Positions 3,075 through 64,000 of a DNA stretch of 64,000 nucleotides are shown in pieces. The notes beneath the pieces are model-generated. The model was not told the DNA's origin, searched no databases, and saw nothing but the letters and a program-made list of their open reading frames with translations. The translations under genes were made by a program, and so were the position numbers. This DNA is from an uncultured Thermoleophilia bacterium (GTDB lineage Bacteria; Actinomycetota; Thermoleophilia; RBG-16-64-13), in NCBI GenBank assembly GCA_963772095.1, contig CAVYVU010000017.1:31402-95401 (forward strand), given 5' to 3'. Positions within the stretch are counted from its first letter, which is position 1. Each line of letters opens with the position of its first letter.

Positions 3075-3942
3075 TTATCCCTTTCTCGCCATGAACGCCA
3101 CGATAGCCTTCGCCATGTCGCTCGCCTCGAGGGCATAGAGCTCGCCCGTCTCCCGAGTCGCCACGGAAGGGTCGCCTATGTAACCAAGCGGAAAGAGCTC
3201 CCTCCACTTGCCCTTCTGGATGGCTTCGTCGAACTCTTCAGGAGACGGCAGCACCGGCAGCAGCGTGGCCGCTTCGACGCTCTTATCGAGCACGTCCGGA
3301 TACCAGCGCATTATCATGCTGGTCTCGAACTCCTCGGCGTGAACGTGCAGGTCCGACCGGACGAGCCGTTCTCGCGCCGCTTTGGTGGCCTCAGAATCGT
3401 CGGCCTGCAACAGGGCCTCGGGCGGCAAGGGCAGAGGCTTGTGGAAGGCGGAGGTATAGGCCTCCTCGATGAACTGACGGACAAAACCGCCCATCGTGTA
3501 GATCGCATCCACCCCTTGAGCCCGCACCGCGCGGATGGCTTCCATGATGGCGTCGTTGTGGGTGGGATCGCCGTGATGGTTGAGGATGAATTGCCGGGTG
3601 AATCCCCACTTGGCATACTCGGCCAACAGCTCGCTGAGCACCGCGACGAACGTCCCTCGACTGATGCCCAGAGACCCGGGGAACATACCGGTGGTGGGAT
3701 TCATGCCGAAGTAGTAAGGCGGTGCCATCACCGTTTCCACCCCGGACTCGATCGAGCTCCTTCCTCATCAGTGAACAGAGCAGATACGCCCCATACGTGT
3801 CCGTGGCCAGGGGCAGGTGAGGCCCGTGCTGCTCGATGACCGCGATGGGGACCAGCATCACGGCTTTCCTTGCCGCTGCCGCCTCCACGGCCGGCCAGCT
3901 CATGTCTGCGATCGTGCCCTGAAACACGGAATAGGATCCCAC
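3075..3942 (-). pseudogene. creatininase-family amidohydrolase split by a frameshift near 3740-3790
   Basis: N-terminal fragment ORF 3391..3942 (MSWPAVEAAAARKAVMLVPIAVIEQHGPHLPLATDTYGAY) and C-terminal fragment ORF 3075..3740 (ILNHHGDPTHNDAIMEAIRAVRAQGVDAIYTMGG) are in different frames. Confidence 0.7.
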
Positions 3943-4019
3943 CTGAAACCTCCTCCACTCCTTAGGCGTTGAAGCCGCTCAACGTGAATAGCATGCGTGG
4001 CGTCAAAAGCGCAAACTGG

Positions 4020-5414
4020 CTAGTCGCATCCTCCGGTCCGCTCAAAGGGGGAGCGCGCGGCGTCAGTAGCGACCGACGCCTCGATGCCATCGGGAGCCAG
4101 CAGGACAGTGCCGCTCTCGACGCCGGCCATCACCGCGGCTCCCTCTGCCGATGCGGCTCGAAGGACGTCATTTTCAGCGTCCAGCGCTACACGCGCCGCG
4201 GAACGCTGGGCGCGGGGATCGAGCCGAAGGATGATCACGATCCCAATGCAGGCGAAGCCACAGGCGATGAAGAACGGCACTTGGTAGCCCACGAAGTTGA
4301 GCACGATCCCGGCCAGTACAGGCACGACGATCGCGGTGGCGTGCAGGAAGGTCACCCCCATGGCGAGGCTCGGAGGTATGTCCTCAGGGACTGCGATCTT
4401 GCGCAGGTACGTGGCTGCCCCGATGGGCGACAGCGGTGTGATGAAGTAATAGATCACAAAGAAGATGCAGGCGAGGATGACGTTGTTCGCCAAAGCGTAC
4501 CCGCCCAAGGCCACGATATAGGCCACGTTGATGACGGACAACGTGCGGCGTTCGCCGTAGCGGTCGAGCATCCGGCCGGCCCATGACGACGAGACCATGC
4601 CCACCACCGCGGCCGCCAGCAGTACGATGCAGATCGAGGCCACGCTCAGATGGAAGTGATTGACGAGCACCCACAAGCCGAAAGAGAAGAACAACTGCTG
4701 TCGAGCTCCGTCCAGCGCATTGAGCCAGTAGTAGTAGCGATAGTCACGCCGCAGCACCAAGCGTCGTTGCGCCAGCACGGCCTTGGAGGGCTTCCCTTGG
4801 TGCAGATGAGGGAAGCCCACGATCGCGGCCGCGGCGATTAGGGATATCGCGCCAAGCGCGAGAAACACCGGATGGAACGAAGACAGCTTGAACAGGAAGA
4901 TGAAGAGGATGATCGCGGTACCGGCGAGTGCCCCGCCCTGGACGTACGCCGCCATCTTGCCCAGGATGCTGCCGCTCTCGGACTCCTCGGTGAGGGTCAT
5001 GCCGAGGGAGTACTGGGTCTGCAAGACCGTGTGGAAGCCTACGCTTGAGATGATCACCCACGGGATGACCGTCCAGAAGTTGGTTGCCAGGGCGAAGCCG
5101 CCAAGCCCGACACCGAGGGCCACGAGCGCGAAGGCTGTGAGCCGCTGCTGGGAGAGACGGTAGAAGAGGGCGGTCAGGAAGATGAGAAAGAAGCCCGGGA
5201 TCTCGCGGATTGCCGTGATGTAGCCGAACATCGGCCCGTTGAGATGCAAGACGCCCTGAAAATAGTTGGTGAGTATGGCCTGGTTGGCATAATAAGCCAG
5301 ACCGAATGCGGCCGACATCACGGCAAGCATGAGGTAGCCGCGTCCGACCGGAGTCCGCCACATGTCCAGCAGGCGCTTCATGCGGACGTCCCTATCGGCC
5401 GCGCTCGCCGGCAC
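4020..5414 (-). CDS. MFS transporter
   Basis: 464-aa ORF with about 12 predicted hydrophobic helices in the MFS layout. Confidence 0.75.
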   Translation of the reverse strand: MPASAADRDVRMKRLLDMWRTPVGRGYLMLAVMSAAFGLAYYANQAILTNYFQGVLHLNGPMFGYITAIREIPGFFLIFLTALFYRLSQQRLTAFALVALGVGLGGFALATNFWTVIPWVIISSVGFHTVLQTQYSLGMTLTEESESGSILGKMAAYVQGGALAGTAIILFIFLFKLSSFHPVFLALGAISLIAAAAIVGFPHLHQGKPSKAVLAQRRLVLRRDYRYYYWLNALDGARQQLFFSFGLWVLVNHFHLSVASICIVLLAAAVVGMVSSSWAGRMLDRYGERRTLSVINVAYIVALGGYALANNVILACIFFVIYYFITPLSPIGAATYLRKIAVPEDIPPSLAMGVTFLHATAIVVPVLAGIVLNFVGYQVPFFIACGFACIGIVIILRLDPRAQRSAARVALDAENDVLRAASAEGAAVMAGVESGTVLLAPDGIEASVATDAARSPFERTGGCD

Positions 5415-5451
5415 CCATCATTCCGAAGTTGGCGCAAACGTCTCCCGCGCA

Positions 5452-6093: not shown

Positions 6094-6191
6094 CGGAAGC
6101 GCATCTCAATGCACTTGGCGCTCATCGCTTCTCCTTTCAGATGGCACCAGCTTACGCTTTGGTCGGCGAAGGAGCTCACCTTATGCCAACT

Positions 6192-7499
6192 CTACCTCGA
6201 CGTAATGGTCCCGACGATCGTCCACGAGCGGGATCGTGACACGCGTCCCTTCCTTGCCCAGGCCGACTCCGTCCAGTTTGCCTCGGACCGCGGGCTCCGG
6301 CATCTTCGCGACCCGCTCAGCCTCAGGCGTCTTCGCGACTCGCGTGATCGGTGATGTGGTAGAAGGTCTCGCGATACCGATAATGGATCTTGCACGACTC
6401 CCAGTGCTCCGGGATCAACGGCGTGAGTGCGCAGACTTGTCCACGTCCAGACTGGAGCACCGATAAGTGTCTCCACGACAGCCGGTACATCCAGCCCGCC
6501 GCCCCGGTGTACCAGGTCCAGCCGCCCCGTCCCGTATGCGGCGGCGCACCGTAGATGTCCGCGCTCATGACGTACGGCTCCACTTTGTAGAGTTCGCTCA
6601 GCTCCGGCCGGTCCGCCGTGGTGGACTGGATTGAGCATGGCGAACAGTTCCCACGCGCGCTCCGTGTCGCCCATCATGGCAAACGCCATGACGGCCCAGA
6701 TCGCGGCATGGGTATACTGGCCGCCGTTCTCCCGCACGCCGGGCACGTACCCCTTGATGTAGCCGGGCTCAAGAGTCGGATGTGTCGAACGGCGGCTCGA
6801 GCAGCTGGATCATGCCTGCGCTCGCGTCGCACCAGGAGCTTGTCCACCGCCGCCATGGCCTCGCGGGCTCGCCCTGGGTCTCCCGCCGCCCGATATCACC
6901 GCCCAGCTCTGGCTGATCGAATCGATGTGGCATTCGTCGTTCACCGACGAACCGAGGGGGGTGCCGTCGTCGAAGTATGCCCGCCGATACCAGCCGCCAT
7001 CCCACGCATGGGCCTCGATATTGGCCCAGCAGTTCCTCGGCCTGCCCGGCGCACACTTGGCCAGCCTCCGTCGTCTCCCCGATTCCGCGCCAGCTCCGCG
7101 AACAGCTGCAGGTTGTGGTAAAGGAACCAGGCCAGCCAGACGCTTTCTCCCCTGCCGTGCACGTCCGACAAGGTTCATGCCATCGTTCCAGTCGCCGGTC
7201 TTCATCAGCGGCAATCCATGGCGCCCAAATTGCAGGCCGTGCTTGAGGGCACGCACGCAATGCTCGTACAGCGTGGCGACGTCAGTCGACTGCTGCGGAA
7301 GATCGTAGTAGGCCTCCTCTTCGGGGCCCAATTCCCGGCCCTCGAGAAAAGCCACGGACTCGTCGAGGACACCGGTGTCGCCGGTCGAGGACACATAGCG
7401 ACACGTCGCGTATGGGCAGCCAGAGATAGTCGTCGGACGAATGGGTCCGTACCCCATGCCCCGCGGGAGGATGCCACCAGTGCTGCACGTCGCCCTCAC
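6192..7499 (-). pseudogene. cgs: C-terminal GH94 (glycoside-phosphorylase-like) domain of the cyclic glucan synthase, broken by at least 6 frameshifts
   Basis: GH94 motifs are spread across 5 reading frames: LWLP (main ORF), GDWNDGMNLVG and AWDGGWYRRAYFDDGTPLGSS (6810..7499), GESVWLAWFLYHNLQLFAELARNRGD (6941..7171), LLEPPFD (6769..7260), PGVRENGGQYTHAAIW (6192..6746), SADIYGAPPHTGRGGWTWYTGAAGWMYRL (6323..6583). Confidence 0.7.
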
Positions 7500-10400
7500 G
7501 GAACTGACGCCCGGCGCACCGCACGAGCTGCTCGCGGGCGAGCCAGGGAGAGGCGTGCATCAGGGCCATTGTGTCCTGCAGTTGATCGCGGAAACCGTAG
7601 GCACCGCCGGATTGGTAATAGCCGCTCCGACCCCAAATCCGCGAGGAGAGCGTCTGGTAGACCAGCCATCCGTTGGCCATGACGTTCAAAGCCTCGTCCG
7701 GAGTCTCAACGTACACCGCGCCCAGGGTACGGCTCCAGTGCGCCCACACAGCCTCCAGTGCCTGACGGGCGCCGGCAGGGCCACTGAACCGCTGCATCAA
7801 CCTTTGGGCTTCGTCCACATCGGCCGCCGACCCCAGCACGAACACGATGTCCTGCTCCTGCCCGTCGGCCAGGTCGACCTGGGTCTGGATCACCGCGCAT
7901 GGATCGAGTCCCGCACCTGTCCTGCCGGACAGGCGCGCTCGTCGCATAGCCGCGGGATCGGCCAGAGAACCGTTGCGACCGATGAACTCGGTGCGGCTCG
8001 CGGTGACGCTACGTCTCGCTCCGCTCGTTTGGGCGAAGACCACCCGGTCGGACCATTGGCGGGAATAGGGGTTACGGGCGAACAGCGCCCCTGTGTCGGC
8101 ATCCTTTTCGGTCACGATGTGCATGAGATTGGAGTGCCGCCACTCGCCCAGCACCAACTCCCAATACGCGGTGAGCGACAGCCGGCGATCACGCCCCGAG
8201 TGATTGCGCAGCTTCACCACCACGAACTTCACCGGGGCGTCCATGGCGACGTACGTGGTCATCTCCGAGAAGATCTTGGACTCGTCGTGTTCGAAGACGC
8301 TGTAACCGAAACCGTGTCTGCATTCGTAGCCCGACCGGCCGGGAACGGGAAGAGGAGCGGGCGACCAGAAGGTCCCGGTCTCCTCGTCGCGGATATACAT
8401 CGCCTCCCCGCTGCTGTCGCTCACCGGGTCGTTATGAAAGGTCGTCAAGCGAAATTCGTGAGCGTTCTCCACCCACGTATAGGCGCTACCGCTCTCGCTG
8501 ACGACCGTTCCGACGTAGGGACTTGCGATCACGTTCGCCCATGGGGCGGGTGTGCTCTCCCCCGGCTTCAGGCTGATGACGTATTCGCGGCCGTCCAACG
8601 TAAAGCCCCCGAGACCATTGTGGAAGAGGCTGTCTCGCCTTGCCGGAGGCGCGACTTTCTCGATGGCCGGTTGGCGAGAGGGCTCGAGAGCCCCGGGCAG
8701 GCGTTCGGCCGGGAGGCGGCGTTGCACCTGCTCGGCGAACGTCTCCGCCGTGTCGACAAGCACTACACGGGCAACAGTCTGGAACAGCACTCGGTCCTCT
8801 TCGGACAGCTCGTCCCCGCGCCTGAGGAATACGCCGCCAGGCTTGTCGAACACGGCGGCTTCGGGCCCTACGTTGATAAGGGCCATGATCTCGTCGTGCA
8901 GGACCGCCCGGTAGCCTGAGAAGTCCTCGATCAAGATCACCAGGTCCGCGGCCAAGCCCTTGATCCTCCAGTAGGCGTGGGCCTGCAGAGCCTGCCTGAC
9001 GAGGTCGATACGCGTCACTTCGGCGATGCGCACCAACACGATGGGCAGGTCGCCGGAGATCCCGAACCGCCAGAGTCCCGATTGACCGAGTTGATTACGG
9101 GCGATGATGCTGGCGGGGGCTCGCCTGGAAGCGTTCCCGTGGATGACGGAGGTGGCCAGGCGTCCGTAGAGCTGAGCATCCGCCTCAGTGACGTTGAGAA
9201 GGCGCAGCACCTCCTGACTTTGGAACCAGGCCATCTCGAATGCGCGCTCCACAAACCGGCGGTCGCCGTATTTTTCGACCAAAGCCAGGGCAGCTTCGCG
9301 AGTCTCGGCCACGCCGGAGATCACCTGCACGGTCACGGACTCGTCCAAAGGTACCGTCACCGAGCGGCGGATGGCCACGATGGGATCGAGGACCGGCCCC
9401 TCGGTGTTAGACAATGACGATCGTCTGTTGTCGTCGAATGCCAGCGGATTCGCCGCGGTCCTTCCCCGGCCTATGAACCGGGCCCGGTCGGTCTCGAACG
9501 AGGCATCCCCTCCGACTACGCCCGGGACAGCCAGCAGATGGAACATCCACGGGATCTCTTCCTCCGGAGTCCGGCGGCGCCGGCGGCAAAGGATGGCCCC
9601 ATGCCGGGGAAGGATCTCGGTCTGCACGAACAGGTTGCTGAAAGCACGGTGGGCGAGGTCGGCGTTCAATGGCGCCATGACCACTTCCGCGTAGCTCGTC
9701 ACCTCGATCTCGCGGGCCTCGGCGGACAGATTGGTGAGAGTGACACGACGGATCTCGACGTCGTCCTCGGGCGAAACACTGACCTCGGTGTGCGCTTCGA
9801 TGGCATCGTCGAGTCTGCGGTATTCGGCGCGAGCCTGCACGAAGACCGCCTCGTAGCGCTCGGCCTTTTTCCGCGTCGGTTGGTAGGCTGTCGACCAGTA
9901 GTCGCCTGTTCTGCGATCGCGCAGATAGATGAAGGTGCCGGAGCAATCGCAGGTGACGTCCTCGCGCCAGCGGGTCACAGCCAGGTCGCGCCAGTGGCTG
10001 TAGCCGCCGCCGGCGTTGGTAACCATCACGTGGTAACGGCCGTTGGAGAGCAGGTGAATCTCGGGCAGCGGCGTGTTCGGATCGGTGAGCACCCGGTGGA
10101 TGGCGCCGGTCTCCGCTGCTATCACGCGCCCGGCCTCAGCCGTCTCGCCCTCTCGTGGGTGCACGGTCACCGTGTGTTTCGGCACCCGTTCCTGAAGCAG
10201 CAGCTCAGTGGTGCGCACCAGCGGGTCCGAAAGAAACCGGCGCTGCATGGGTCCATCGAGCAACGCATGCCCCAGTGCCAGCAGGCTCATCCCCTGATGG
10301 TGGGCCATAAAGCAGCGCACGACAGCATGGTTCGTCCCCGGGAGTATGCGCGACGGCGTATAGTCGACGGCCTCGTACATCCCGTAGTCGCCAAGAAGAC

Positions 10401-23266: not shown

Positions 23267-24494
23267 TTACAGAAGGATGATCTCTTGTGGCGAATGGTGG
23301 ATCTTCTCGGCCCCATTCGGGTCGCCCACGATGTAGTTGTCGCAGCACATGATCCACAACCGGCCCGGCTTGACCAGCACAGGATGGACCGCGATATTCA
23401 TGCCCGCGAAAAGCTCCCAGGGTTCGTCAAGGCGGAGGCTGGGCCGCTCCACGAGAGAATAGCCTTGGCCGTGCGAGAAGGAACGGGTGGGCGGGACATA
23501 GCCTCTTTCCACCATGAAGTCTTTGGCCATGGTGTAGAGGTCCTTGCAGCTCGCACCGGGAACCATGTGCTTGGCGATCAGATGCTGGCACTCGACCGAG
23601 TTCGCCCAGCCCTCTTTCAGCTCCTGGTCGGGCTCACAGCCCACGCAGAACACCCGGAAGAGCTTCAGCATAGAGCCCACCCGGACCGTTGGTCTCATTA
23701 AGGACGGAGAGCTGGTCGCCCTCCTGGATCACGCGGCCCTGGAGATGGTAGACGTCGAACGGAGCAAACGTGCCCATCGGACCAGAGTTCACGAGAACGA
23801 GACCGCGGCCGCTGCCGTGCTTGCTCATGAAGTAGTGCGTCTCGGCGTAGACGTCGTAATCGCGCATACCGGGTTTGATGGTGGCCTTGAGATGTTCCAC
23901 GCACGCGTCGTGGATGGAGGCCGTGACCTTGGTCTGGGCGATCTCTTCTTCACTCTTGGCAGCACGGAGCAGATCCACCCACTCGGTGGCGTCCACGAAG
24001 GTGGCGTCCGGTAGGTTCTCCTGGAGATATCCGGCGAACGTCATGGGGATGAAGGACGGCTCCACCCAACCGATGGTGGCTTTGGGCTTTTCCTTGAGGA
24101 CATCCACGGCCAGCTTGCCGTCGTAGTACTTCGAGAAGCCGAAGGTGGGGAAGTACACGTCTCCCAGGTTGTTCTTGATGCCCCGGGCGCCCCATTTGGG
24201 AGGAAAGCCCTGGGGAAGCGGCGGCTCATTGCCGCAGTTGATGACGGTCATGTCCTCGTGCAGGGGGAAGATGACGGTCATGGGAAACTGATGGCGAGCG
24301 GTCCAGTCGGTGAACCAGCGCAGGGACCCGCCCATGAACTCCTCGTCGTTCTGCATGACGAGATAGTCGATCTTCTTCTCCCGCATCATGGAGCGCACTG
24401 CATCCCAGCGGCGTTGCATCTCTTGGTCGGAAGTGGGGTCGACGAACCTACCCATTGGGTTTTCCACAGCACAACCTCCTTGACGTCTCTTCAC
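23267..24494 (-). pseudogene. M24-family metallopeptidase (Xaa-Pro aminopeptidase/creatinase-like) split by a frameshift near 23640-23700
   Basis: N-terminal creatinase/prolidase domain in ORF 23634..24494; C-terminal pita-bread catalytic region (HGQGYSLVE ... IAVHP) in ORF 23267..23698. Confidence 0.7.
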
Positions 24495-26465: not shown

Positions 26466-28121
26466 CTATCGTGCCGCCGTCAACGCGTCGTTCACCACCG
26501 TCTGCGCTTCCTCCAAGATCCGATGCAAATGACCGGCCCCCCGAAAGCTCTCGGCGTAGATCTTGTAGATGTCCTCGGTCCCGGACGGACGCGCCGCAAA
26601 CCAGCCGCTGCCAGCTACCACCTTGATCCCACCGATCGAGGCGCCGTTACCCGGCGCGCGGGTGAGGACGGCCTGGATCGGCTCACCGGCCAGCTCCTTG
26701 CTTACAACCTGCTGCGGCGAAAGCCGCCCGAGCATCTGCTTCTGTTCCGGGCTCGCCGGAGCCTCCACGCGGTCGTACGCCGGCTCGCCGAACTCGCAGT
26801 GTCAGCTGCCGGTAGATGATCGCCCGGATCGTGGCCGGTGCGCGCGGTGATCTCCGCGGCCAGCAAGGCCGGGACGATGCCGTCTTTGTCGGTGGTCCAG
26901 ACACTACCGTCCAACCGCGCGAAGGTGGCACCGGCGCTCTCCTCTCCGGCAAAGCCGAGTGAGCCGTCGAGCAAACCTTCCACGAACCACTTGAACCCCA
27001 CGGGCACCTCGTAGAGCTGCCGGCCAAGCTTCGCTGTGACCAGGTCGATCATCCGGCTGCTCACCACCGTCTTGCCCACCGCCGCTGAATGGCCCCAACT
27101 CGGCCGGTTTTGGAAGAGGTAGTAGAGCGGCCGACGGCAAGGTAATGGTTGGGCGGGAGCAGGCCCGCACTGTGGGTCACGATCCCGTGCCGGTCCGCAT
27201 CGGTGTCACAGGCCAGAGCGATCTCGAAACGATCTTTGAGATCGATCAGCCTCTGCATGGCGTACGGCGAGGACGGGTCCATGCGGATCCGGCCGTCCCA
27301 ATCCACGGTCATGAACCGGAATGTGGGATCGACAGCGTCGTTGACCACCGTGAGGTCCAGCCCGTAGCTCTCCGCGATGAGCGGCCAGTAGTGGACAGAT
27401 GCTCCGCCCAGGGGATCCACCCCGATCCTGACCCCCGCGGCGCGGATGGCACCCATGTCGACCACCTTCACCAGATCGGCGACGTAGGCCTTGAGAAAGT
27501 CGTGCCGGTGCGTGGTCGGGGCGCGCAAGGCGTTTTCGAAGGAAATACGCTTCAGCCCCTTGAGGCCGCCCGCGAGGAATCGATTCGCCCTCTTGCTCTA
27601 TCCAGCCGGTCACCTCGGGTTCGGCGGGTCCGCCGTGTGGCGGGTCGTACTTGAAGCCACCCTCGGAGGGCGGGTTGTGCGAGGGGGTTATGACTATCCC
27701 ATCGGCGAATCCCGACCTTCTCCCTTGGTTGTAGTCGAGGATGGCGTGGGAGACCACAGGAGTCGGCGTGTACTCATCGCCGTCCGATATCATCACCTCC
27801 ACCCCGTTTGCCGCAAGGACTTCCAGCGCACTCGCGAACGCGGGCGCCGAGAGTGCATGCGTGTCGATGCCCACGAAGAGCGGCCCATCTATCTTCTGCT
27901 GCTTGCGGTATAGACAGATCGCTTGAGCTGATCGCCAGGATGTGCCATTCGTTGAAGGACCCTTCGAACGCGGAGCCGCGATGTCCCGAGGTGCCGAACA
28001 CCACCCGCTCTGCGGGGTCGGTCGGATCGGGCGTCTTCGTGTAGTACGCCGTGACCAGTCGCGACACGTCGACGAGAATCGACGGGTCGGCGGGCGTTCC
28101 GGCAAGAGGGCTGATCTTCAC
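26466..28121 (-). pseudogene. pgm: alpha-D-phosphohexomutase (phosphoglucomutase) broken by at least 4 frameshifts
   Basis: N-terminus [25 protein letters not shown] (27774..28121); active-site GIVITPSHNPPSEGGFKY (27206..28105); domain II (27061..27528); domain III (26702..27079); C-terminus PSGTEDIYKIYAESF (26466..26768); all different frames. Confidence 0.8.
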
Positions 28122-42705: not shown

Positions 42706-44017
42706 TCAGTCGCCGAGGCTGGAGCGCAGGTCGATGACGCGCTGCAGCGAAGCCTTGAACGCCGATCTACTCAGGGTGCCGTTAGCGTAGCCGGTCTCCA
42801 GCCCGTCCATCGCTTGCTCGCCTTGGGTGACGTCGCGCGACGCGCAGAGGATGAGATCCATGCCGGCCCCGGCCGCCAGCAGGGCACGATGTTGGAATGT
42901 CCCGAACGCCTGCAGAGCTCCTGCCCCGAGTGAATCGGTGATCGTCACACCCTGGAAGTCGAAGCTGCTCGCGCAGTTGACCCTGGACGACGGTGGACGA
43001 CAGCCCGGCGGGCCGAGCGGCATCGAGCGCCGGGTACACGGCCCAGGACACCATGACCAGCCGGACCCCGGCGGAAATCGCGGCCTTGTACGGGAATTCG
43101 TCGATGGCTGCTCAGCGACTGCGCCGACACGTTCAGGGTGACCGGCCGCAAGTCTGTGTCCTGCGAACTGGTGGCCGCACCCAGGCCTGGAAAGTGCTTG
43201 GCGGTGGCCGCAACGCCAACCTGCCTGCTGCGCCGTGATGAAGTTCGCACCCAGCTTGGAGACGACGGTCTGGTCGCATGCTGTAGGAGCGTTCGTTCTT
43301 GTCGTCGAAGCCGCCCGCCTGGCGGTAGACATCGAGCACCGGGGCCAGGTTGACGTTCATGCCGAGGCCGCGCAGGTTGAGCCCGGCACCGTTGCCCGCC
43401 TCGGTCGCCGCGGCCGCGGGGTCAGCCGACTGGCCGATCTGCTTCTCGGAGAGCAGTGGCGCGCCCGACAGGTGGCGGATCTTCCCGCCCTCCTGGTCGG
43501 TCATCAGGAGCAGCGGGGCCTGCACCGGGTTCTGAGCGCTGGCGTTGGCTCTGCTTCAGCGTCTGGATGACCGCGCGGATCTGCGCGTCTGCTGGAGATG
43601 TTGTCGGCGAAGAAGATGACCCCGGCCGCCTCGCCGTGACTGATCAGCGAGAGCAGCGACGGCAGGTGGGGTGAGCCCGGTGTAGCTGTAGATCACCCGC
43701 TGGCCCGCCATCTGCCGCGCCGACAGCACAGGAAGTGTAGCGGGCGTTGTCGTGGGAAGTGTGGTGGGCGTCGTCGTCGGCGCCGTGGTGGACGTCGACG
43801 TTGAAGTGCTGGTGGATGCCGAAGTGCTCGTCGTAGGTAGCGAGGTGGTCGACGTTGATGTCGAGGTGGCAGTCGACGTCGCCGTGGTGGAAGACGTGGA
43901 CGTCGAAGTGGTCGTCGATGTCTGGACACCCGGACCCTGGCGCCCGCAGCCTCCCGCCAAAAGAACGGCCGACAAGATCACGCAGGCAACCACCGAGAGA
44001 GCAAAGGCGCGCTTCAA
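42706..44017 (-). pseudogene. glycoside hydrolase family 3 (beta-hexosaminidase/beta-glucosidase-like) lipoprotein with at least 3 frameshifts
   Basis: signal plus lipobox (LLAGGCG) and Ser/Thr-rich linker in ORF 43556..44017; GH3 motifs DQEGG, KHFPGLGA and C-terminal domain are spread over ORFs 43133..43525, 42945..43250 and 42706..43332. Confidence 0.7.
43740..43935. repeat. low-complexity GTCGACGTCGA(A/G)GTGG-type DNA repeats encoding the Ser/Thr-rich linker of the GH3 lipoprotein
   Basis: visible periodic repeats; the minus-strand translation gives TSTSTS...; mirror-image ORFs appear on both strands. Confidence 0.5.
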
Positions 44018-44227
44018 GGAGAGCCTCCTGGTCGAGAGCTTCGCGGGCCGGTCGTACGAATCAGCGTCGCCACCCGTCGACGTGCACGATCAGAGCGTCG
44101 TGCCCCTTCTCAACCTTTACCCACCACATCGTCATCGCAATACTGGATCTCAGCGCTGGAATAGATCGCCACTTTGGCGCCATCCCCATGCCTCTCCCCT
44201 AGGACCCGTAGCACGTCGTCCCACTTG

Positions 44228-45370
44228 TCAAGCATGAGCAACTCTTTCGCTCGGGGCAAAGAATCCCGCGGCGGTGAGGTCCTTGTACTCATTGAAGACA
44301 ATAAGCCGCTCCACATGCGGCGGCAGTTGAATCATCAACCTGAACTCATCAGAGCTGATGCTGCCCCAGTTTCCAAAGAGGTAGTGAGCCACGTGGCCTT
44401 CCGGGGCATTGCAAATCAGCACCACGTCCCCACCGGTGCTCTTGACGGACGGGAAGCCGGTGATGACCCCGCCTTCTCCCTCGTTCGCTTTCGCGAAAGT
44501 ATTGGTGACCACCACATCGCAGTCCCTGGCTCGAGGGGTCAGGTAGTGCCATCGGGCTTCCACCAAACCCTCGTTGAACGCGGTCTCAGGCTCCCCTGCG
44601 TAGACAGAGACGGTCTCCCCCCAGGTGTTGACGATCGCATCTATCTTGAAGTCGAGACCGACCATGTGAGCCGCTTCCTCGATATTCTGCCGCATGGGGT
44701 TGCCCTGAATGCAGCCCATACCACCAAGGTCCACACTCTTGCTGGCACCATCCTGCAGCTTCATGCGATGCATGGCCCCGACAGTCTCGAACGATGCGAT
44801 CCCCGGCAGGATGATCTTGGCTCCTCCGCCAAAGCCGGCGAACCCGTGAGGCACGATCGAACCGATAGCTATCTTGTAATCGCAGTTGACAACCTCGGCA
44901 TTGATGTACAAATCCGTACCGAAGCTCGTTGTCCCAACCAAGCTGCAGTTGCCGACGATGTTGTGATTGAAGACGGGGAACCGCGAAACTACCTCTTCCC
45001 CTAGCTTCTTGACGAAGTCCCTTCGGGTCAGAGCACCGTGGCAACCCAATGCGCAGACGAAACGGATCTGGTCGTCCCCAACCCCCGCTTTCGCTAACTC
45101 CTCCAGCACGTATGGAATCATCGGGGCTGCCCGAGTGGGGCGAGACATATCGTCAAAAATGATGGCTATTTCTTTCTTTCCTCTGGCGCCCACGCTGATC
45201 GGCGAAGTGCCGATGGGGTGAAGGATCGCGTCTTCGATACGCGTAGCCTCCAAAGCCGGCCGATCGTGGCCGGCCATATGGCACAGTTCCACCTGCCAAC
45301 TTTCAGGAAAGGCGACGTCGAGAAGCCCGGTCTCATACCAAGCGAGCTGTGGGAGGCTGACTCTCTTCAT
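44228..45370 (-). CDS. LarA-like protein (lactate racemase family, DUF2088), paralog 2
   Basis: 380-aa ORF with LarA N-terminal domain layout; second LarA homolog in the window. Confidence 0.65.
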   Translation of the reverse strand: MKRVSLPQLAWYETGLLDVAFPESWQVELCHMAGHDRPALEATRIEDAILHPIGTSPISVGARGKKEIAIIFDDMSRPTRAAPMIPYVLEELAKAGVGDDQIRFVCALGCHGALTRRDFVKKLGEEVVSRFPVFNHNIVGNCSLVGTTSFGTDLYINAEVVNCDYKIAIGSIVPHGFAGFGGGAKIILPGIASFETVGAMHRMKLQDGASKSVDLGGMGCIQGNPMRQNIEEAAHMVGLDFKIDAIVNTWGETVSVYAGEPETAFNEGLVEARWHYLTPRARDCDVVVTNTFAKANEGEGGVITGFPSVKSTGGDVVLICNAPEGHVAHYLFGNWGSISSDEFRLMIQLPPHVERLIVFNEYKDLTAAGFFAPSERVAHA

Positions 45371-45383: not shown

Positions 45384-45662
45384 TCATCCGCCTAGAGCAA
45401 ATGTCAGTAGCACAATATGGTCGTCGCTGTTGACCTGGATGTCGTAATCATCCACACAGAAACGACCGTTCACGTTGAAGGTGTAGTGGCCGGTAAGTTT
45501 GTCCTCGCCGGGCCTGATGATGCTCCCCTCTAATGTGGGCATCTCTCGCCTGAGCGCGGCGACAACCTCCCGGAGGCTGACGTCCCCCTCTAACTCGAAC
45601 TCCACGTTCTGTCGGCCGGCGAACTGATTGGACATCCCGAACAATTCCACGCAGTACTTCAT
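45384..45662 (-). CDS. MoaD/ThiS-family ubiquitin-like sulfur-carrier protein (92 aa, C-terminal GG)
   Basis: MKYCVELFGM...HIVLLTFALGG; its ATG overlaps the AOR stop codon in an ATGA; in the ORF track it appears fused to the AOR ORF only because the AOR frameshift puts both in the same frame. Confidence 0.7.
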   Translation of the reverse strand: MKYCVELFGMSNQFAGRQNVEFELEGDVSLREVVAALRREMPTLEGSIIRPGEDKLTGHYTFNVNGRFCVDDYDIQVNSDDHIVLLTFALGG

Positions 45663-47513
45663 GATGGCCAGAATTCCCTCGCCACGTCGTCCAGACCAAG
45701 CTCCAGAAGTTTCTTCTTGCTGGGCTTTGTCGTCTTGAGGTCCCAATCCATGGCCTCGAGAAACTCCCGGTTGATGGCATCTTGATCGATGGTCACCCCG
45801 GCGAGCGGACCGGCCTCCAAGGGCGGTTTCCCCACCAGCCTCCCAGAGACGACGTAGTCCAAGCGGATTCAGCCCTTCGCGGACGTTGAACGCCTGACGC
45901 ATGTTGGCGATTCGCTCTCCGGTCGTCAGCACTTCCTCAAGGGTCGCGTCCCACCCAGTGAGCGCATTCAAGAACTCGATCAGGACATCCACGTGGGGAT
46001 ACGTAGCGATGACGAACACACAGACCCCGAGGCTCTCTAGGGCATGATTGAAGACGTAATTGACCTTCTGGGCTTCGCCTCTGCCGCTAAATGCGCCAGG
46101 TTCGTAGGCGGGCACTGGAACGCCCGGCGGCACGAACCCGCCATGCCAACGCATATGCCGGGCGGGAGTGGCGTCCATTCTGTAACACGAGGCAAAGCCG
46201 TACTCGAACTTGGGGTTATGAGCAGGGGGTTCCTGCCCATGGATATGAATGGCATATTGTTCGGCACCCCGGCCGATCTTTTCAGCGGCGACCCTGACCC
46301 CGTCGGCCAGGATGTCGCCAAAGCCTTCCCTCTTGCCCAAGTTTTCGAGCATGGCGACGATCGACTCGTGGTTGCCCCACGTCATTTCGATGCCGCCGGT
46401 GTCCTCCTTGGTGATGACCCCGTTCTCGTAGCATTCGATCGCAAAAGCCATGACCGCACCGGCGGAGATCGTGTCCACCCCATAGCGGTTGCACACGTCG
46501 TTTGCCTTGATGATCGACTCGATATTGTCGTTGAGGCAGTTCGTCCCGAACATGCTGACGGTTTCGTACTCGGGCTTGTGGACGCCGTGTGAGTATTCGT
46601 ACTCGCCTGTGCTTTCCTTCATCAGCCCGCCACAGGCCACCACGCACCGGTGGCAACCGTACTTCCTCTGCACCCTCTCCATCACCGCGTCCACGCCGAT
46701 CTTCTCGACCCCCGGGAAGTCGATCTCTGTGACCCCGGACCAGTTCTTTACCGGGGTATCTCCGATCTTCGCAAAGGGCACGATGACGGCAACGGTGCCG
46801 AAGTTCTTGAACTCATCGATCAGCCCCACGAGTTTCCTCGCGTAGGTCTTTCGCAGTTCGGCCGCCCCCTCAGCGTCGAAGACCGGGACCGGCGTGCTGC
46901 CTTTGGCCACGATAGCTTTGAGCTTCTTGGAGCCCATCACGGCGCCAAGTCCGGAGCGCGCAGCCGCCCTGCCTTTGTCGGTCATGATCCCGGAAATGAG
47001 CGAAAGCTTCTCGCCCGCAGGGCCTATGCAGGCGATCTCGGCATCCTTGCCGAACTCGGCCTTGAGGATGTCCTCCGTATCGTGAGAGTCCTTACCCCAC
47101 ACATGTGCGGCGTCCCGGATCTCAGCAACTCCATCGACGATCGAAAGGTATACCGGTTTCGCAGACGCCCCGGTGAAGAAGACGGCGTCATAGCCGGCAT
47201 ACCGCAGGATCGGGCCGAAGTTACCTCCGGCGTTGGAATCGCCCCAACCACCGGTGAGGGGAGATTTCCCCACGACTGCAAACCTAGAGCCGCCGAGCGC
47301 GCTGGTTCCCGTGAACGTACCGGAAAGAAAGCCTAGTATGTTTTCCGGACCCAACGGGTCGACACCGGCTTTTAGGCGATCAAAGAGTACCTTGACCCCT
47401 AGGCCGTACCCGCCAAAATATTGCCGGTATAGTGCCTCGTCCAGGATTTCTTCATGCAGCGCACCCGTGGACAGGTCCACCCAGAGGATCTTGCCGCAAT
47501 ATCCGTTTGCCAT
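45659..47513 (-). CDS. aor: tungsten-type aldehyde:ferredoxin oxidoreductase (AOR family) with a single frameshift near 45865
   Basis: N-terminus MANGYCGKILWVDLSTG; pterin/4Fe-4S domain motifs; authentic C-terminus (GPLAGVTIDQDAINREFLEAMDWDLKT...LGLDDV) lies in ORF 45659..45862, a different frame from the main ORF. Confidence 0.8.
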
Positions 47514-47547
47514 GTCGCTCTCCGTGCCTTGCTACCAGTGACTGGGG

Positions 47548-48491
47548 TCAGGAACAGTTCTTCTCCTCTTGTATCTTGACCAGCGTCACCATCACCTCGT
47601 TGACGGGAGTCGGCACGCCCAGCCTCTTTCCTTCGCGCACGATGCTGCCGTTGATGGCGTCGATCTCGGTCCTTCGTCCTCTTTCCAGGTCCTGAAGCAT
47701 CGAGCACTTGGGCTTCGTGCCGGAATCGTGGAATTTCTGGATGGTCTTCAGCAAGCCCTGGATGGGATCTCCCGCCTGCGTCCAGCGCGATGCCCGCCGC
47801 CTTGGTGACCGCCAGACATTCCTCGGCCATCTTGATGAGTAGCTCTTTGGCGTGCGGATACGCGGCGTACTCGTCGTTGGTGAGCCTCATGGCGGTCCCC
47901 AGCGCCAGGGGGACGTTCTGCAGCACCTTGCCCCAGATGAGCTGCTGGACATTCGTCGAGACGACCACGTCCAGACCCGCTGCTCTGGAACGCATCCGCG
48001 ATCTCGTCCACCTCGGGCGAGACGACGCCGTTAGCCGGTCCGATCTTCAGCCCGCCGGTGCCGACCACCCAGCTCAGCCGATTGAGCTCCAGAGGAGTGA
48101 CCACGCACCAGAACACCCCGCCGATCACGTGGGAATCGTCCCCCAGCACGTCCACGATGTCTTCCACGTTCCCGGCACCGTTCTGGACCGAGAGCACCCA
48201 GGTGTGCGCCCCGATGATGCCTTGGCGCCGGCGATCGCCGCCGCGCGTGGCGTTCGACTTGACCGCGAGCACGACCAGGTCGGCGACGCCGACGGTTGCG
48301 ACGTCGTCGGTGATCTTCACCGCGGCCTGAAGGGTCCGGCCGTCGGACATGTCGATCCGGACGCCGCCGGCTTGAATGGCGCCGACGATATCCTTCCGGA
48401 GTTCCACCAAGGTGACGTCCTGCCGCTCGTCGGCCAGCAGCGCTCCCAGAAGGCTGCCGATGTTGCCCGCACCGATGATGGCTATCTTCAC
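47548..48491 (-). pseudogene. 2-dehydropantoate 2-reductase (PanE/ApbA) family 2-oxoacid reductase with at least 2 frameshifts
   Basis: N-terminal MKIAIIGAGNIGSLLG Rossmann region (47748..48491); ApbA C-terminal domain in ORFs 47399..47995 and 47548..47754 (KPSMLQDLERGRRTEIDAINGSIV). Confidence 0.7.
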
Positions 48492-48560: not shown

Positions 48561-50225
48561 TCAGAAGGACGGGTCGACCACCACGTCGACCAGATTGGGA
48601 ACGCCTGAGCCCAGGGCCTTCTTCAGCGCGTTCCGAGGTCGGCCGGGTCGGTCACCTTCCGGGCAGCGATGCCCAGGCCTTCCGCGATCTTGCAGAAGTC
48701 GATCTCCGGCGGGGACAGCACCGTGCCCAGGTTCCGGCCCTTGACCTCGTCCCCCATCAGCTTCGTCTTCATGATCCGCACCTGGCGGTAGCAGGCGTTG
48801 GACAGGACGATGAAGGTGACGGGAATGTCGTAGTGAGAGGCATTCCACAGACTCTGGATGGACCACATGGCGCTGCCGTCGCCCGCGACGCAGACTACGG
48901 GCCTATCCGGCGAAGCCGAGTTTGGCGCCCAGGGCGGTCGGCAACCCGCCGCCGATGCTGCCCCCGCCTCGTGCGCGCTGATAGCTACGGAGTTCCTTGA
49001 ACGGGATGGTCCTTCTCAGTATGGCCGAGTACGACCAGCAATCATCCACGATCCTCGTGCCCGGTTCGATGGCATCGCTTATCTCAGCCATCAACCTGGT
49101 CCCGGAGATCGGAGTGTTGTCGCGCTCCGACAGCGATTTCTTCTCGAAAGCGTCGACCATCGCTTGCTTTTCGAGAGATATGGCTTTCACTCTCTCGGCG
49201 ACGCTTGAACGTGTGCTGGACGTCAGCATCTCCGCGAGAGCTTCCGTCAGGTCGTTCACAGCCACCTTGATATCGCCCTCGATGCCGCACGCTATCGGCA
49301 GGTTCTTGGCTATCTGCCACGGATTGTTGTCTATCTGGATGACCTTCGTGGAGGGCGGCACGAGGGACTTCGGCAGGTATATGGCCTGCTGGAAGAACAT
49401 GGATCCGATGACCACCAAGACGTCAACCGCTTCCAGGATGTCCCGGGTGGCCAGACTGTTGGGGTCCATGTCGCCGATGTACTGCGGATGGTGGACGGGG
49501 AAGTTGACGTCGCTCATCCACGGCTGATACACGCGGGCGCCGATCTGCTCGGCGAATCGGACCACTTCGTCCAGCGCCTCGCACTTCGTCACGCCGTCTT
49601 CGACGATGATCGCCGGGTTCTTGGCTGCGGAAAGCAGCTCCACGGCGGCCTCGATGGAGCGGTCATCCGGATGAAGTCTCGTATAGGAGTGGCAGCTGGG
49701 CGGATACTCGAAATCGAAGGTGTTGGCCAGCACGTCCCCGGGCAGCGACACCATGACCGGGCCCGTGGGCGGATGCGTCGCCACTTTGAACGCGCGGCGC
49801 ATGACGGTGGGCAGGTCTTCCGGGCGAATGACCTCGGTGGCCCACTTGGTGAAGGGACTGGCTATCTTGACCAGGTTGTCCGACATGGCGGCTTCTTCGG
49901 CCAGCAAGCGAGTGTCCTGCTGCCCCACGGTGACCACCAGGGGGACGCCGCCCCAGTAGGCGTTGGACAGCATCGGAAGACCGGCGGCCAGACCCGTGCC
50001 GGTGTGCAGATTGAGGACTCCCACCTTCCCCGAGGTGCGCGCATACCCTTCGGCCATACCCACCGCCGCGACCTCGTGCAGGCAGAGTATGTACTTTATC
50101 TCCGGATGGTCTTCCATGGCGTCGACGAACTGCACCTCAGTCGCTCCCGGAATACCGAACACATATTCCACGCCTTCATTGCGCAGAATCTGCATCACTG
50201 CTTCTTTACCCGTTACTCTGGACAT
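48561..50225 (-). pseudogene. thiamine-pyrophosphate-dependent enzyme (acetolactate synthase / benzoylformate decarboxylase family) with 2 frameshifts in the C-terminal TPP-binding domain
   Basis: 440-aa N-terminal and central domains intact (48903..50225); TPP-binding domain (GDxxxxN-type region NACYRQVRIM) in ORFs 48623..48868 and 48561..48866. Confidence 0.7.
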
Positions 50226-59676: not shown

Positions 59677-59725
59677 GACTTCAGCGCGGCCTGCCACGCT
59701 AGCTTGCTCGCCGATGCCTCCTTCT

Positions 59726-59815: not shown

Positions 59816-59921
59816 AACCCAAGCTCCGGGCACCGCGCGTGGCGTGAGAAAAGGGAGCCGGCGGCGGTTCCGGGGGTCGACATGAGCGGCATACGAATGG
59901 GCATGAGCAGGAGGTGCACCT

Positions 59922-61145
59922 TTGGACTTCAGATTGACTGACGAACAGGAAATGACGCGCGACATGGTTCGCGAGTTTGCGCAAGAAGAAGTGAAGACAG
60001 TCGCGATGGAACTCGACGCGAAGAAGGACCCGAAAGACTGCATCCCGTGGGATCTGATCAAGAAGGCCTCCAAGTTGGGCCTCAGAACGGCCGCGATCCC
60101 CGAGAAGTTCGGGGGCGAGGGAGCGGACTATCTCACGCTGGCGCTCATACTCGAGGAGCTCGGGGCTGCCGACCAGGGCTTCGCCAGCATCATCAGAGGC
60201 TGCTATACCGAGTCTCCCAGGCTGATAGCGGAACTGAGTGACGAACAACGGGACGAGTGGCTGCCGAAGTTCCTCGCGGACGACCTGTTCCTACTGGGAC
60301 TGGCCCGCACGGAGCCGGATGCAGGGACCGATTCTCACTACCTCTATGATGAGCCCGGGGCCTCGATACGCACGTTTGCCGAAAAACGGGGCGACGAGTA
60401 CGTCATCAACGGGAGCAAGCATTTCATATCGAGCGGCGGAGTAGCCAAGCTCTATTTCCTCTACGCGAGAACGGACAAGAAGGGACCGATTTCCACGAGT
60501 CTGAGCCTGTTCCTCATGCCTCACGACGCCCCCGGTTTCTCCATAGGCAGATTCCACAACAAGCTGGGAAGAAGGCTGCTTCCCAACGCCGAGTTGGTGT
60601 TCGAGGATGCCCGCATCCCAGCCCGAAATCTGATCGGGGAAGAGGGAGACGCCTGGGGATCCGAGGGTGAAGGTGGAGGAGGGCCACAGAAGGACTGGAC
60701 AAAGACGGGCGCCGGGGCGGCGCCGCCTTTCGGACTTCTCGGCGCCGCCGTGAATCTGGGAACCGTCCGTGCGTGTTACGAAGAGGCCCTGAATTATTCA
60801 CGGAACCGGTTCCAGGGCGGGAAGAAGATAATCGAGCACCAGCATGTCGCTATCAAGCTCGCCCAGATGAAGGTGCAGATCGAGGCAGCCAGGGCGCTCC
60901 TCTGGAAATCTGCCTGGTCCTGGGAAACCAAATACGACTACGATCCCAAGATGGGGATGTTGCTCAAAGCCTATATCGACGAGATGGGCTTGAGTGTGGC
61001 GAACCACGCGGTGGGCATCTTCGGCGGTCTCGGTACCGCGGACGACGACGTACTGATCCAGAAGCTGCTGAGGGACGTTTACACGTTCCTTCATGGATTT
61101 GCCACGACGGATGTTGCCCTGATGATAGGCGCGCCGAGTGCCTAG
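59922..61145 (+). CDS. acyl-CoA dehydrogenase family protein (atypical: Gly-rich insertion; no canonical YEGT catalytic-Glu motif)
   Basis: ACAD fold motifs (LGLRTAAIPEKFGG, RTFAEKRGDEYVINGSKHFISSG); TTG start 7 nt after AGGAGG; lower GC than the left half of the window. Confidence 0.8.
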   Translation: MDFRLTDEQEMTRDMVREFAQEEVKTVAMELDAKKDPKDCIPWDLIKKASKLGLRTAAIPEKFGGEGADYLTLALILEELGAADQGFASIIRGCYTESPRLIAELSDEQRDEWLPKFLADDLFLLGLARTEPDAGTDSHYLYDEPGASIRTFAEKRGDEYVINGSKHFISSGGVAKLYFLYARTDKKGPISTSLSLFLMPHDAPGFSIGRFHNKLGRRLLPNAELVFEDARIPARNLIGEEGDAWGSEGEGGGGPQKDWTKTGAGAAPPFGLLGAAVNLGTVRACYEEALNYSRNRFQGGKKIIEHQHVAIKLAQMKVQIEAARALLWKSAWSWETKYDYDPKMGMLLKAYIDEMGLSVANHAVGIFGGLGTADDDVLIQKLLRDVYTFLHGFATTDVALMIGAPSA

Positions 61146-63663
61146 CGGCGCCGAACAGATCTTTGTCAACTGCACGAACGGCGGCCCCATCCGCGTCCAC
61201 GTACAGGATGGACGGATCACCAGGGTGCGGCCCCTGGTCTTCGACGATACGGATGCCGCCTCCTGGAAACTCGAAGTGGATGGCGAGGAATACACCCCGC
61301 TCAGAAAAGCCTGTGTCGCCCCCTTCGCTTTGACCGAAAGAGCCCGGGTCTATTCGGAAGATAGGATCCTCTATCCCATGAAGCGGGTGGATTTCGATCC
61401 CAAGGGCGAGAGGAACCCCCAAAACAGAGGCAGATCCGGATACGTGAGGATCGGCTGGGACGAAGCGCTGGAGATCGTTTCCAGTGAAATGAAGCGGATC
61501 CGCGCCGACTACGGGCCCGAAGCCATCATGTCCCGGGCCGGTTCTCATCACAACTGGGGCAACCTGGGTTATCGCACGGGCGCGTGGTCACGATTCTTCA
61601 ATCTGATCGGATTCACCGATATCTTCGACAATCCGGACAGCTGGGAAGGCTGGCATTGGGGCGCCACCCACGCCTGGGGTTTCTATCTGGAGACTGGGCA
61701 ATCCCGAGCATTACGACATGCTCGAGGACGCCCTCAGGCACACCGAGTTGATCATCCACTGGGGCAACGATCCCGATTCCACCCACGGCATCTATGGCGG
61801 GAACGAGTCCGCCCTGTGGCGTCTCTGGCTCAAGAAGCAGGGCAAGAAGCAGATCATCATCGACCCCTTCTTACAACTACACGGGTGCCGCCGTGGGCGA
61901 CAAATGGATCGCCTACCGACCGGGCACGACCGCGGCGATGGCCATGGCCATCGCCTACGTGTGGCTGACAGGAAGGCACCTACGACAAGGAGTACGTGGC
62001 CGCCCGCACCGTCGGTTTCGAGGAGTTCAAGAAGCACGTCCTGGGCGAGGACGACGGCGTTCCGAAGACGCCCGGCTGGGCCGGCGGAGATAACCGGTGT
62101 TCCTCCACGAGGACGATCACGGCCCTGGCCCGGGAATGGGCGTCGAAAAGGACCGCCTTGGCCGGCGGGACCAAAGGCGGGGAAGGCGGCTATTGCAGGC
62201 AGGCATACGCCACAGAATCGGCCAGATTGCTGGTCTTGCTGCAGGCCATGCAGGGACTGGGCAAACCGGGCGTGAGCATCTGGGGAACCGCCAACGGACC
62301 GCCGTACAACGCCACGCTCGATTTCCCGGGCTACGCGTCCGGGCGGATTCAACCTGATAGCCGAGAAACCGGCCGTGAACCCCGTGAACCAGCGGGTGTA
62401 TCGGCTGACGGCTCCGGAAGCCATCCTCAGCCCTCCGCTCGAGCTGGATCGGCGAGGGCTTCTGCGGCAACTCACTGGAGCAGCAGTTCATCCCGCACAC
62501 CTATCCGCTTCCCGGCTGTTCCGAGGTGAAGATGTTCTACCGTTACGGCGGCGCTTTCCTGGCCACGATGACGGACACCAATCGATGGGTGAGGATGTAT
62601 CAGAGTCCCAAGCTGGAGTTCGTGGTCAACCAGGACTGCTGGTGGTGCACGGAGACCAGATTGGCGGACATCATCCTTCCGGCCTGCACCAACCTCGAGC
62701 GCAACGACATCAGCGAGTGGGCCAGTTCCGGCGGCTATTCCCTGCACGCTTCCGGCAGCTGCAACCATCGGGTCATCGTCTACCAGCAGAAATGCGTCGA
62801 GCCGGTGGGCGAATCGAAGCCCGACTACGACATCTTTTGCGAGCTGGCCGAGAGACTGGGAGTGGAGGAGGAGTTCACCGAAGGCAATACCTTCGAGCAG
62901 TGGATCGAGAAGATGTTCAACTGGCTCCGATCTGCCCAAGTACATCTCGTATCGAGGAGTTCAAGAAGAAGGGATACTTCGTGGTCCCGCAACTGGAGGA
63001 CTACAAATCGACGCCCGGCTTTGCGCTGGTTCTACGAAGGAAGGCCCTGCGACACTCCCGACACCTCTAATCCGAAGAGGGATACCGAAAAGAGCCGGGA
63101 GCTGGGGACGTACAGCGGGAAGATCGAGTTCGTCTCCCAGAGCTTACTCGCTCATACTGCCCGACGACGACGAGCGGCCGCCGTTGCCGCGCTACATCCC
63201 GAGCTGGGAAGGGCACACCTCGGAACTGGCCGGAGAAGTACCCCCTTCAGCTCATCTCGCCCCACCCCAGGTTCTCGTTCCACACTCAGCACGACAACCA
63301 CGTGCCGTGGCTGTCCGAGATCCCCGGTCACCGGGTGATCAAAGACGGCTACGCCTGGCAGGTCGTCCGCCTCCACCCCGTGGACGCGGAGGCGCGGGGC
63401 ATCAGGCACGGCGACATCGTCAAGCTTTACAACGACCGGGCCTCGGTGCTTGGGCATTGCGCAGATCACCGAGAGGGTGCGTCCCGGTGTGGTCCATTCA
63501 TGCGAGGGATCGTCCAGATACGATCCGCTGGAGCCCGGCAAGGCCGGCAGCACGGATAGGGGCGGCTGCGTAAACCTGCTGACGCCCTCGCGTATGCTGT
63601 CAAAGAATGTGCCGGGTATGGCGCCAAACTCGTGTCTGATAGAAATCGAAAAATGGGAAACAT
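61138..63663 (+). pseudogene. DMSO-reductase-family molybdopterin oxidoreductase catalytic subunit lacking an N-terminal Fe-S motif (pyrogallol-hydroxytransferase-like), broken by at least 6 frameshifts
   Basis: consecutive overlapping ORFs 61138..61968, 61718..62275, 61794..62093, 61996..62529, 62526..63338, 63302..63559 and 63450..63665 each carry contiguous pieces of one molybdoenzyme (IFVNCTNGGPIRVHVQDGRITRVRP N-terminus, IIHWGNDP, YNYTGAAVGDKWIAYRPGTTAAMAMAIAYVW, VVNQDCWWCTETRLADIILPACTNLER, IPGHRVIKDGYAWQVVRLHPVDAEARGIRHGDIVKLYNDRASVLG). Confidence 0.7.
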
Positions 63664-63691
63664 GATCCTAGCCGGTTGAGGTCTGGTTTAT

Positions 63692-64000
63692 ATGGCTCGA
63701 TATGGCCTAGTGGTGGACATAACTAAGTGCAATGGCTGCTACAACTGCTTCCTAGCCTGTAAGGATGAGTATTGCGGCAATGATCACCCTCCTTATTCCG
63801 CGGCCCAGCCCATGACCGGGCAGTTCTGGATGAGGATCGGGGAAAAGGAGAGAGGAAGGTATCCGAAGGTCAAGGTCGCCTATACGGCCGTTCCGTGCAT
63901 GCACTGCGAGAAGCCGCCCTGCGTCGATGCCGGGCGCGAGGATGGTGCTGTGTATCGGAGAGAGCGATGGCATCGTCCTGATCGACCCAGTAAAGGCCGC
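63692..64000 (+). CDS. 4Fe-4S ferredoxin-type electron-transfer (beta) subunit of the molybdoenzyme; partial (runs off the window) and frameshifted near 63950
   Basis: MARYGLVVDITKCNGCYNCFLACKDEYCGN ... VPCMHCEKPPCVDA; then ESDGIVLIDPVKA continues in another frame; absent from the ORF track because no stop lies within the window. Confidence 0.65.
   Translation, partial: MARYGLVVDITKCNGCYNCFLACKDEYCGNDHPPYSAAQPMTGQFWMRIGEKERGRYPKVKVAYTAVPCMHCEKPPCVDAGREDGAVYRRERWHRPDRPSKGR

Follow-up and report, generated by a model that had tools for sequence, protein, structure and literature searches.

We found that the many broken genes in a 64,000-nucleotide stretch of DNA (hereafter the window) from an uncultured soil actinobacterium are best explained by errors in the deposited contig. 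We put the probability that these frameshifts are artefacts of the contig, and not mutations of the organism, at about 0.9 to 0.95. Using DNA alignments against conspecific contigs of 95-97% identity and relatives of 85-86% identity, we identified 59 small indels in the window, 52 of which are coding and are spread over 13 genes. A preliminary description of the sequence had reported at least 25 frameshifts in about 12 genes, which is confirmed as a minimum but is an undercount. The genes that it listed are indeed broken, and the breaks could be placed to the base by alignment; a LarA-like gene (indel at 44239) and a CN-hydrolase gene (478) had been missed. The tail of the cyclic beta-1,2-glucan synthase gene (cgs) and the molybdoenzyme alpha subunit gene carry 13 coding indels each, followed by the GH3 gene (7), phosphoglucomutase (pgm, 5), the PanE-like gene (4), the TPP enzyme (2) and a HIBADH-like gene (2, one of them truly in the reference MAG). 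The creatininase, M24 peptidase, LarA-like, AOR, molybdoenzyme beta subunit and CN-hydrolase C-terminus sequences have one each.

The relatives were located via protein clusters and their DNA was then aligned base by base. Three contigs belong to one conspecific MAG (GCA_936418975.1), where L084 aligns to window positions 1-10600 at 97.0% identity, L085 to 15375-29327 at 95.5-96.8% and L086 to 59676-64000 at 95.1%. Moreover, the Logan contig L087 covers 42612-44659 at 97.0%, the JGI contig L082 covers 43910-48686 at 86%, and the ENA contig L083, 78.5 kb in length, is about 85% identical. The molybdoenzyme on another ENA contig (L081) was dropped as an indel reference, being only 30-50% identical and apparently a paralogue. 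In the conspecific MAG contigs and L087, the cgs tail, creatininase, pgm, M24 peptidase, GH3 and both molybdoenzyme subunits are single ORFs, and in L082 the PanE, AOR, MoaD and LarA genes are all intact. For all broken genes compared, the closest genomes, whose inspection had been proposed in the preliminary description, thus hold single ORFs with complete Pfam architectures, including a LarA protein of 417 aa and an AOR of 621 aa. A codon-usage Viterbi map also places frame switches within genes at every locus named earlier; the map served as a guide only, and heavily shifted stretches are mis-called in it as non-coding.

At the left end of the window, the ORF of the CN-hydrolase C-terminus (2..580, + strand) is longer than normal owing to a 1-nt deletion at about 478, and a 1-nt insertion at 498 lies just beyond the normal stop, both placed by alignment to L084. 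The creatininase-family gene (3075..3942, - strand) is split by an inserted G at 3753 (ctc[G]atc); L084 encodes an intact protein of 288 aa (PF02633). In cgs (6181..14955, - strand), the upstream 7.5 kb is clean and the last 1.24 kb (6181-7417) contains all 13 indels, namely eleven of +1, one of +2 and one of -1 between 6349 and 7417. This tail is uninterrupted in L084, which carries the C-terminal part of 1468 aa. Over cgs positions 7418-10600 there is no indel relative to the conspecific, and the ORF is unbroken to 14955, in agreement with the earlier statement that the long cgs ORF is intact.

The HIBADH-like dehydrogenase gene (15982..16910, - strand) has a 1-nt deletion at 16226. A -2 event at 16193 was rejected as a lesion of the window, as the reference MAG has a (CG)n +2 here; this, and a 14-bp deletion in an S15 peptidase gene, are small natural lesions of the conspecific MAG. 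One inserted base at 23665 splits the M24 peptidase gene (23267..24467, - strand), which in L085 encodes an intact 399-aa Peptidase_M24 protein. The pgm gene (26466..28121, - strand) contains five insertions (26797, 26817, 27133 (+2), 27592 and 27927). Its counterpart in L085 is an intact 549-aa PGM_PMM_I-IV protein, 80 intact homologues from other phyla were found, and the pieces of pgm were also recovered by tblastn.

The GH3 (NagZ-like) lipoprotein gene (42706..44017, - strand) carries seven single-base insertions, at 42960, 43105, 43222, 43273, 43554, 43588 and 43660; it is intact in L087 (97% identical) and in 120 further homologues. In the LarA-like (Lar_N) gene (44116..45370, - strand) an inserted G at 44239 puts the final ~40 codons out of frame, and L082, L083 and L087 read through at this site. 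The aldehyde:ferredoxin oxidoreductase gene (AOR; 45384..47513, - strand) has an inserted C at 45857, after which the shifted frame stays open and enters the MoaD/ThiS-like gene (45384-45662), giving an artificial fusion ORF of 709 aa where the relatives have an AOR of 613-621 aa followed by a separate 92-aa gene. The PanE/ApbA-like reductase gene (47551..48491, - strand) shows +1 events at 47779, 47991 and 48243 and a -1 at 48223; L082 encodes an intact 313-aa ApbA. In the gene of the TPP-dependent, benzoylformate-decarboxylase-like enzyme (48561..50225, - strand; 554 aa in relatives) a +1 is located at 48918 and a -1 at 48635. At the right end, the alpha subunit gene of the molybdopterin oxidoreductase (61138..63665, + strand) contains 13 insertions between 61686 and 63448, twelve of +1 and one of +2, and the Fe-S beta subunit gene (63692..64000, + strand, cut by the window end) has an inserted G at 63962; L086 encodes intact proteins of 837 and 283 aa, respectively. 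The motifs GDWNDG, PGVRENGGQYTHAA, TPSHNPP and KHFPGLG, described before as recognisable, are all present in the fragments.

The indels are strongly clustered, with an index of dispersion of 3.98 in 1-kb bins (p=3e-24) and a probability of 1e-11 for at least 13 indels within 1069 bp, which bears out the earlier impression that the errors are not uniform. They form patches of 0.7-2.3 kb which do not respect gene borders. One patch runs from GH3 into LarA (42960-44239) and another covers both molybdoenzyme subunits (61686-63962). A third (47779-48918) comprises PanE, the spacer and the C-terminus of the TPP enzyme; since a +1 at 48532 falls in the PanE/TPP spacer itself, this patch crosses gene borders. 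The cgs patch, on the other hand, ends abruptly within the gene. The products of the shifted frames have been deposited publicly, as both the 709-aa AOR read-through and a truncated cgs protein of 2557 aa are exact entries of the protein collection from a 295,327-bp NCBI/ENA contig. The breaks are therefore part of the deposited record.

With the indels taken out, each of the 25 genes or gene parts that we corrected is a continuous open frame free of stop codons. We found pN/pS values of 0.05-0.17 for the broken genes relative to the relatives and of 0.04-0.37 for the intact neighbours; inside the patches the values are 0.07-0.16. The dN/dS had been named as a way to recognise genuine pseudogenes, and the pN/pS of the broken genes is like that of the intact genes nearby. 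The patches nevertheless differ from their surroundings in synonymous divergence. In cgs, pS is 0.179 in the tail versus 0.034 upstream, with pN/pS of 0.16 and 0.11, respectively. The molybdoenzyme alpha patch has a pS of 0.27 (pN/pS 0.07) and the adjacent acyl-CoA dehydrogenase (ACAD) gene a pS of 0.028, and L087 shows 39 mismatches in 500 bp inside the GH3 patch versus 2 in ~800 bp outside. Synonymous changes make up the great majority of the substitutions in the patches, which are therefore real, selection-filtered variants of a strain and not noise.

The patches fall on those blocks in which synonymous divergence from the other strain is high. In 116 bins of 250 bp, the indel density increases from 0.3/kb in the least divergent bins to 5.6/kb in the most divergent ones (Spearman 0.45, p=5e-7). 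However, the MFS block (4.0-5.4 kb), EcsC and M24 are equally divergent and have few or no indels, so that divergence from the reference MAG alone is not sufficient to produce them.

Insertions clearly predominate, with 51 insertions versus 8 deletions (86% insertions, p=9e-9). Of 54 single-base events, 46 have no identical adjoining base (run length 1), and the 270 homopolymers of at least 4 bases that occur in the compared 29.1 kb contain none of the events. A link to homopolymers, which is the classical hallmark of nanopore or 454 errors and had been suggested as a check at each shift, is thus absent, and homopolymer-driven nanopore error was rejected as an explanation. We found that 36 of 42 insertions adjoin a third codon position (expected two thirds, p=0.005), and a synonymous reading of the inserted base as a second allele is possible in 24 of 37 insertions (null 16 +/- 3, p=0.008). 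The inserted base is therefore readable as the other allele of a SNP close by, the support for this being statistical. This codon-position signal is of moderate strength (p about 0.005-0.008), and part of it might stem from the error process preferring a certain sequence context. Within 3 nt of the indels, mismatches were not enriched (0.24 observed versus 0.35 expected), which is compatible with a SNP being converted into an insertion and adds no support for it.

Up to 13 frameshifts in a gene with no nonsense codon, no relaxed selection and almost exclusively non-repeat insertions do not fit natural decay. We consider it reasonably likely, though with clearly less assurance than for the artefact as such, that the specific cause is the collapse of alleles. 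Reads from at least two co-occurring strains would have been merged into a single sequence. These strains would be nearly identical along most of the contig and yield a clean consensus there, whereas in a few blocks of 0.7-2.3 kb they would differ by 5-8%. In the divergent blocks, consensus building or polishing may mis-register the alleles and emit both bases of a SNP in tandem, which would create a 1-nt insertion and break the frame. Insertions next to third codon positions and synonymous second-allele readings are what a consensus that retains the two alleles of strain SNPs would be predicted to show. We infer the two haplotypes in the reads from these patterns, and the assembly behind the artefact was probably a long-read one, presumably of the Flye/Medaka type.

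Artefacts of this kind have been described before. In a diploid eukaryote sequenced with PacBio reads, the merging of two alleles with nearby variants led to INDEL errors, apparent frameshifts and false pseudogenes confined to heterozygous blocks, and the frameshifts disappeared in an allele-specific assembly (Cosentino et al. 2021, PMC8445201). The window resembles this case, with the difference that its alleles would be those of co-occurring bacterial strains, for which the haplotypes are inferred. Similarities also exist to the frameshift errors of long-read sequences (nanopore or PacBio CLR) as revealed by the IDEEL test, where indels of only 1-2 nt occur and the orthologues are intact elsewhere (PMC9262707; 10.1101/2021.08.23.457338). 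As in long-read MAGs, some ORFs of the deposited proteome are truncated or fused, and the uncultured organism is represented by a long contig where the contigs of short-read relatives reach only 2-15 kb. It has been shown that microdiversity degrades MAG quality and that nanopore MAGs with less than ~40x coverage keep frameshifting indels (PMC9262707). Many MAGs of the same collections stem from a nanopore-only pipeline using Flye and one round of Medaka (PMC12313526), and the window may have the same origin. Long-read MAG errors are classically associated with homopolymers and often biased towards deletions, whereas 86% of the events in the window are insertions and homopolymers of at least 4 bases are free of them. 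This observation speaks against a consensus artefact, as the classical errors of nanopore consensus sequences are homopolymer deletions, unlike the indels found here.

The preliminary description had offered two technical origins, strain heterogeneity and a low-coverage long-read assembly. The first fits better, since the substitutions within the patches are real, selection-filtered variants and not random errors, and plain low coverage fits less well. We regard it as unlikely that the frameshifts are residual long-read errors that fell at random where coverage was very low, for example one to three reads, with no mixing of strains. In line with such errors, the indels are patchy, and low-coverage nanopore bins have been demonstrated to keep frameshifting indels (PMC9262707). 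Moreover, similar errors occur in the related contig L083 (ERZ25039512 contig_68617, a Flye-style name), which has three +1 insertions in LigD, intact in the window, and a split ApbA. However, patches that were generally noisy would not show substitutions that are overwhelmingly synonymous (pN/pS 0.07-0.16), a feature that argues against plain low coverage. Random errors would neither prefer junctions at third codon positions nor track strain divergence, and they should also strike homopolymers and include more deletions.

We consider it very unlikely that about 13 genes of one strain were genuinely inactivated very recently, for example under relaxed selection or by insertion-prone repair, a reading mentioned before as an extremely recent, simultaneous loss. 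The frameshifts do stand in the public record, the affected genes encode accessory metabolic functions that could be dispensable, and small natural lesions exist in the species, as described above for the HIBADH and S15 peptidase genes of the conspecific MAG. However, up to 13 independent +1 insertions per gene would be needed, and yet neither nonsense codons nor a rise in pN/pS is seen. Bacterial mutation spectra are characterised by deletion bias and slippage at runs, the opposite of an insertion bias with no homopolymer or repeat context. All conspecific and related genomes have the genes intact, and the patches extend over gene borders and, in cgs, break off abruptly within the gene, with the 7.5 kb upstream of 7417 untouched. 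A special form of real and recent +1 insertion would be error-prone end-joining by Ku and LigD, adding single nucleotides at repeated double-strand breaks in a few hypervariable blocks. Both proteins are encoded in the window (37966-41686), but we consider this reading still more improbable. If true, it would mean that a localized, insertion-biased mutational process inactivates accessory metabolism in one strain.

Old pseudogenes were rejected on the basis of intact orthologues, the absence of in-frame stops in the corrected genes and pN/pS values like those of intact neighbours. Pseudogene-rich reductive genomes, such as that of Mycobacterium leprae or those of recently host-restricted symbionts, do show broken genes beside intact ones, as in the window. 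Real pseudogenes display nonsense mutations, deletions, raised dN/dS and lesions that respect gene borders; the window, in contrast, has no nonsense codons and no raised pN/pS, and its lesions cross gene borders. The earlier conclusion that the indels are localized and technical is thus supported by the intact conspecific genes, the lack of nonsense codons, the unchanged pN/pS and the bias towards insertions. The only point in favour of a rescue of the genes by programmed ribosomal frameshifting or other recoding is that the downstream frames stay protein-like; such a rescue can be dismissed, as the same proteins are single-frame in the relatives, the shift sites have no common slippery motif, and up to 13 shifts would be needed in a single gene.

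If the record were taken at face value, this uncultured soil actinobacterium would have lost cyclic-glucan synthesis, phosphoglucomutase, a tungsten aldehyde oxidoreductase, a molybdoenzyme and further functions at once. The breaks almost certainly stem from extra bases introduced in consensus building, and gene loss should not be inferred from them. Furthermore, truncated and fused proteins enter the public databases through the record, the AOR-MoaD fusion and the shortened cgs protein among them, and the demonstration of an artefact prevents false metabolic and pseudogene inferences. The frameshift feature is not biological and its value is that of a quality-control example; its biological interest is therefore low apart from the quality-control signature. 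This signature, +1 insertions outside homopolymers, beside third codon positions and in strain-divergent blocks only, provides a practical diagnostic for strain-collapsed regions of MAGs, which quality control centred on homopolymers would miss.

Rfam and tRNA scans of the window gave no match, and a megablast search with 48 kb of the window revealed no close relative among plasmids. The window is densely coding, with a G+C content of 63%, and the protein clusters that it shares with named MAG proteins suggest an uncultured Thermoleophilia bacterium (Actinomycetota). When the stitched pgm sequence was compared with genome contigs, we found homologues of 64-75% identity across many phyla and nothing closer. 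The gene is widely exchanged, and its homologues, which have no synteny with the window, serve only as confirmation that a single ORF is the normal state of pgm.

Compared with the conspecific MAG (GCA_936418975.1), the block at window positions 4001-5000, at the gene for an MFS transporter (4020-5414), is very divergent, with 94 mismatches per kb and a synonymous divergence (pS) of 0.22, and yet it carries no coding indels. Divergence alone is therefore insufficient for the artefact, that is, for the consensus errors, mostly +1 insertions, as which we read the frameshifting indels of the window. Frameshifts were also found in L083, the 78.5-kb ENA contig of a relative (ERZ25039512 contig_68617; ~85% identity), where LigD (14118-16861) is in pieces owing to three +1 insertions and ApbA (9026-9966) is split by a 1-nt deletion. 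Hence, the error type of the window seems to recur in that assembly.

The short-read conspecific MAG has lesions as well. In its contig L085, the gene for the S15 peptidase (window 16907-18694) is missing 14 bp close to the 3' end (L085 ~12641; window ~17020), which alters the C-terminus of the MAG protein (574 aa versus 595 aa). This multi-base deletion looks natural, in contrast to the +1 insertions of the window. The HIBADH-like gene differs at its 3' end, where L085 is 400 bp longer than the window (L085 13622-14021; window ~16028), and the additional sequence resembles a partial duplicate of the C-terminal domain. A (CG)n +2 frameshift is present at the same locus of the MAG, so that the reference, too, is either variable or damaged here.

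A difference in gene content was found at 21136-23242. The window encodes here, on the minus strand, a xanthine-dehydrogenase-like gene (21920-23242) with the domains Ald_Xan_dh_C and MoCoBD_1, from which MoCoBD_2 is absent. After this gene come a short remnant that is SpoIIE/PP2C-like and ~0.6 kb in which no clear gene is seen. In the MAG, a 595-aa S15 peptidase (L085 6221-8357) takes the place of this content, reflecting either a strain-specific rearrangement that left gene remnants or an assembly mis-join.

The cluster at 44.1-50.2 kb, comprising genes for a LarA-like protein, a MoaD/ThiS-like protein (45384-45662, minus strand), a tungsten-type AOR, an ApbA-like reductase and a TPP decarboxylase, is conserved and syntenic in L083 and in the JGI contig L082 (86% identity), and may represent a 2-oxoacid/aldehyde pathway. 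The NHEJ pair Ku and LigD (37966-41686, plus strand) consists of an intact Ku and a full-length LigD of 945 aa with its ligase, polymerase and phosphoesterase parts; compared with L083, this LigD carries a 24-bp tandem duplication that repeats GVAGPGAA.
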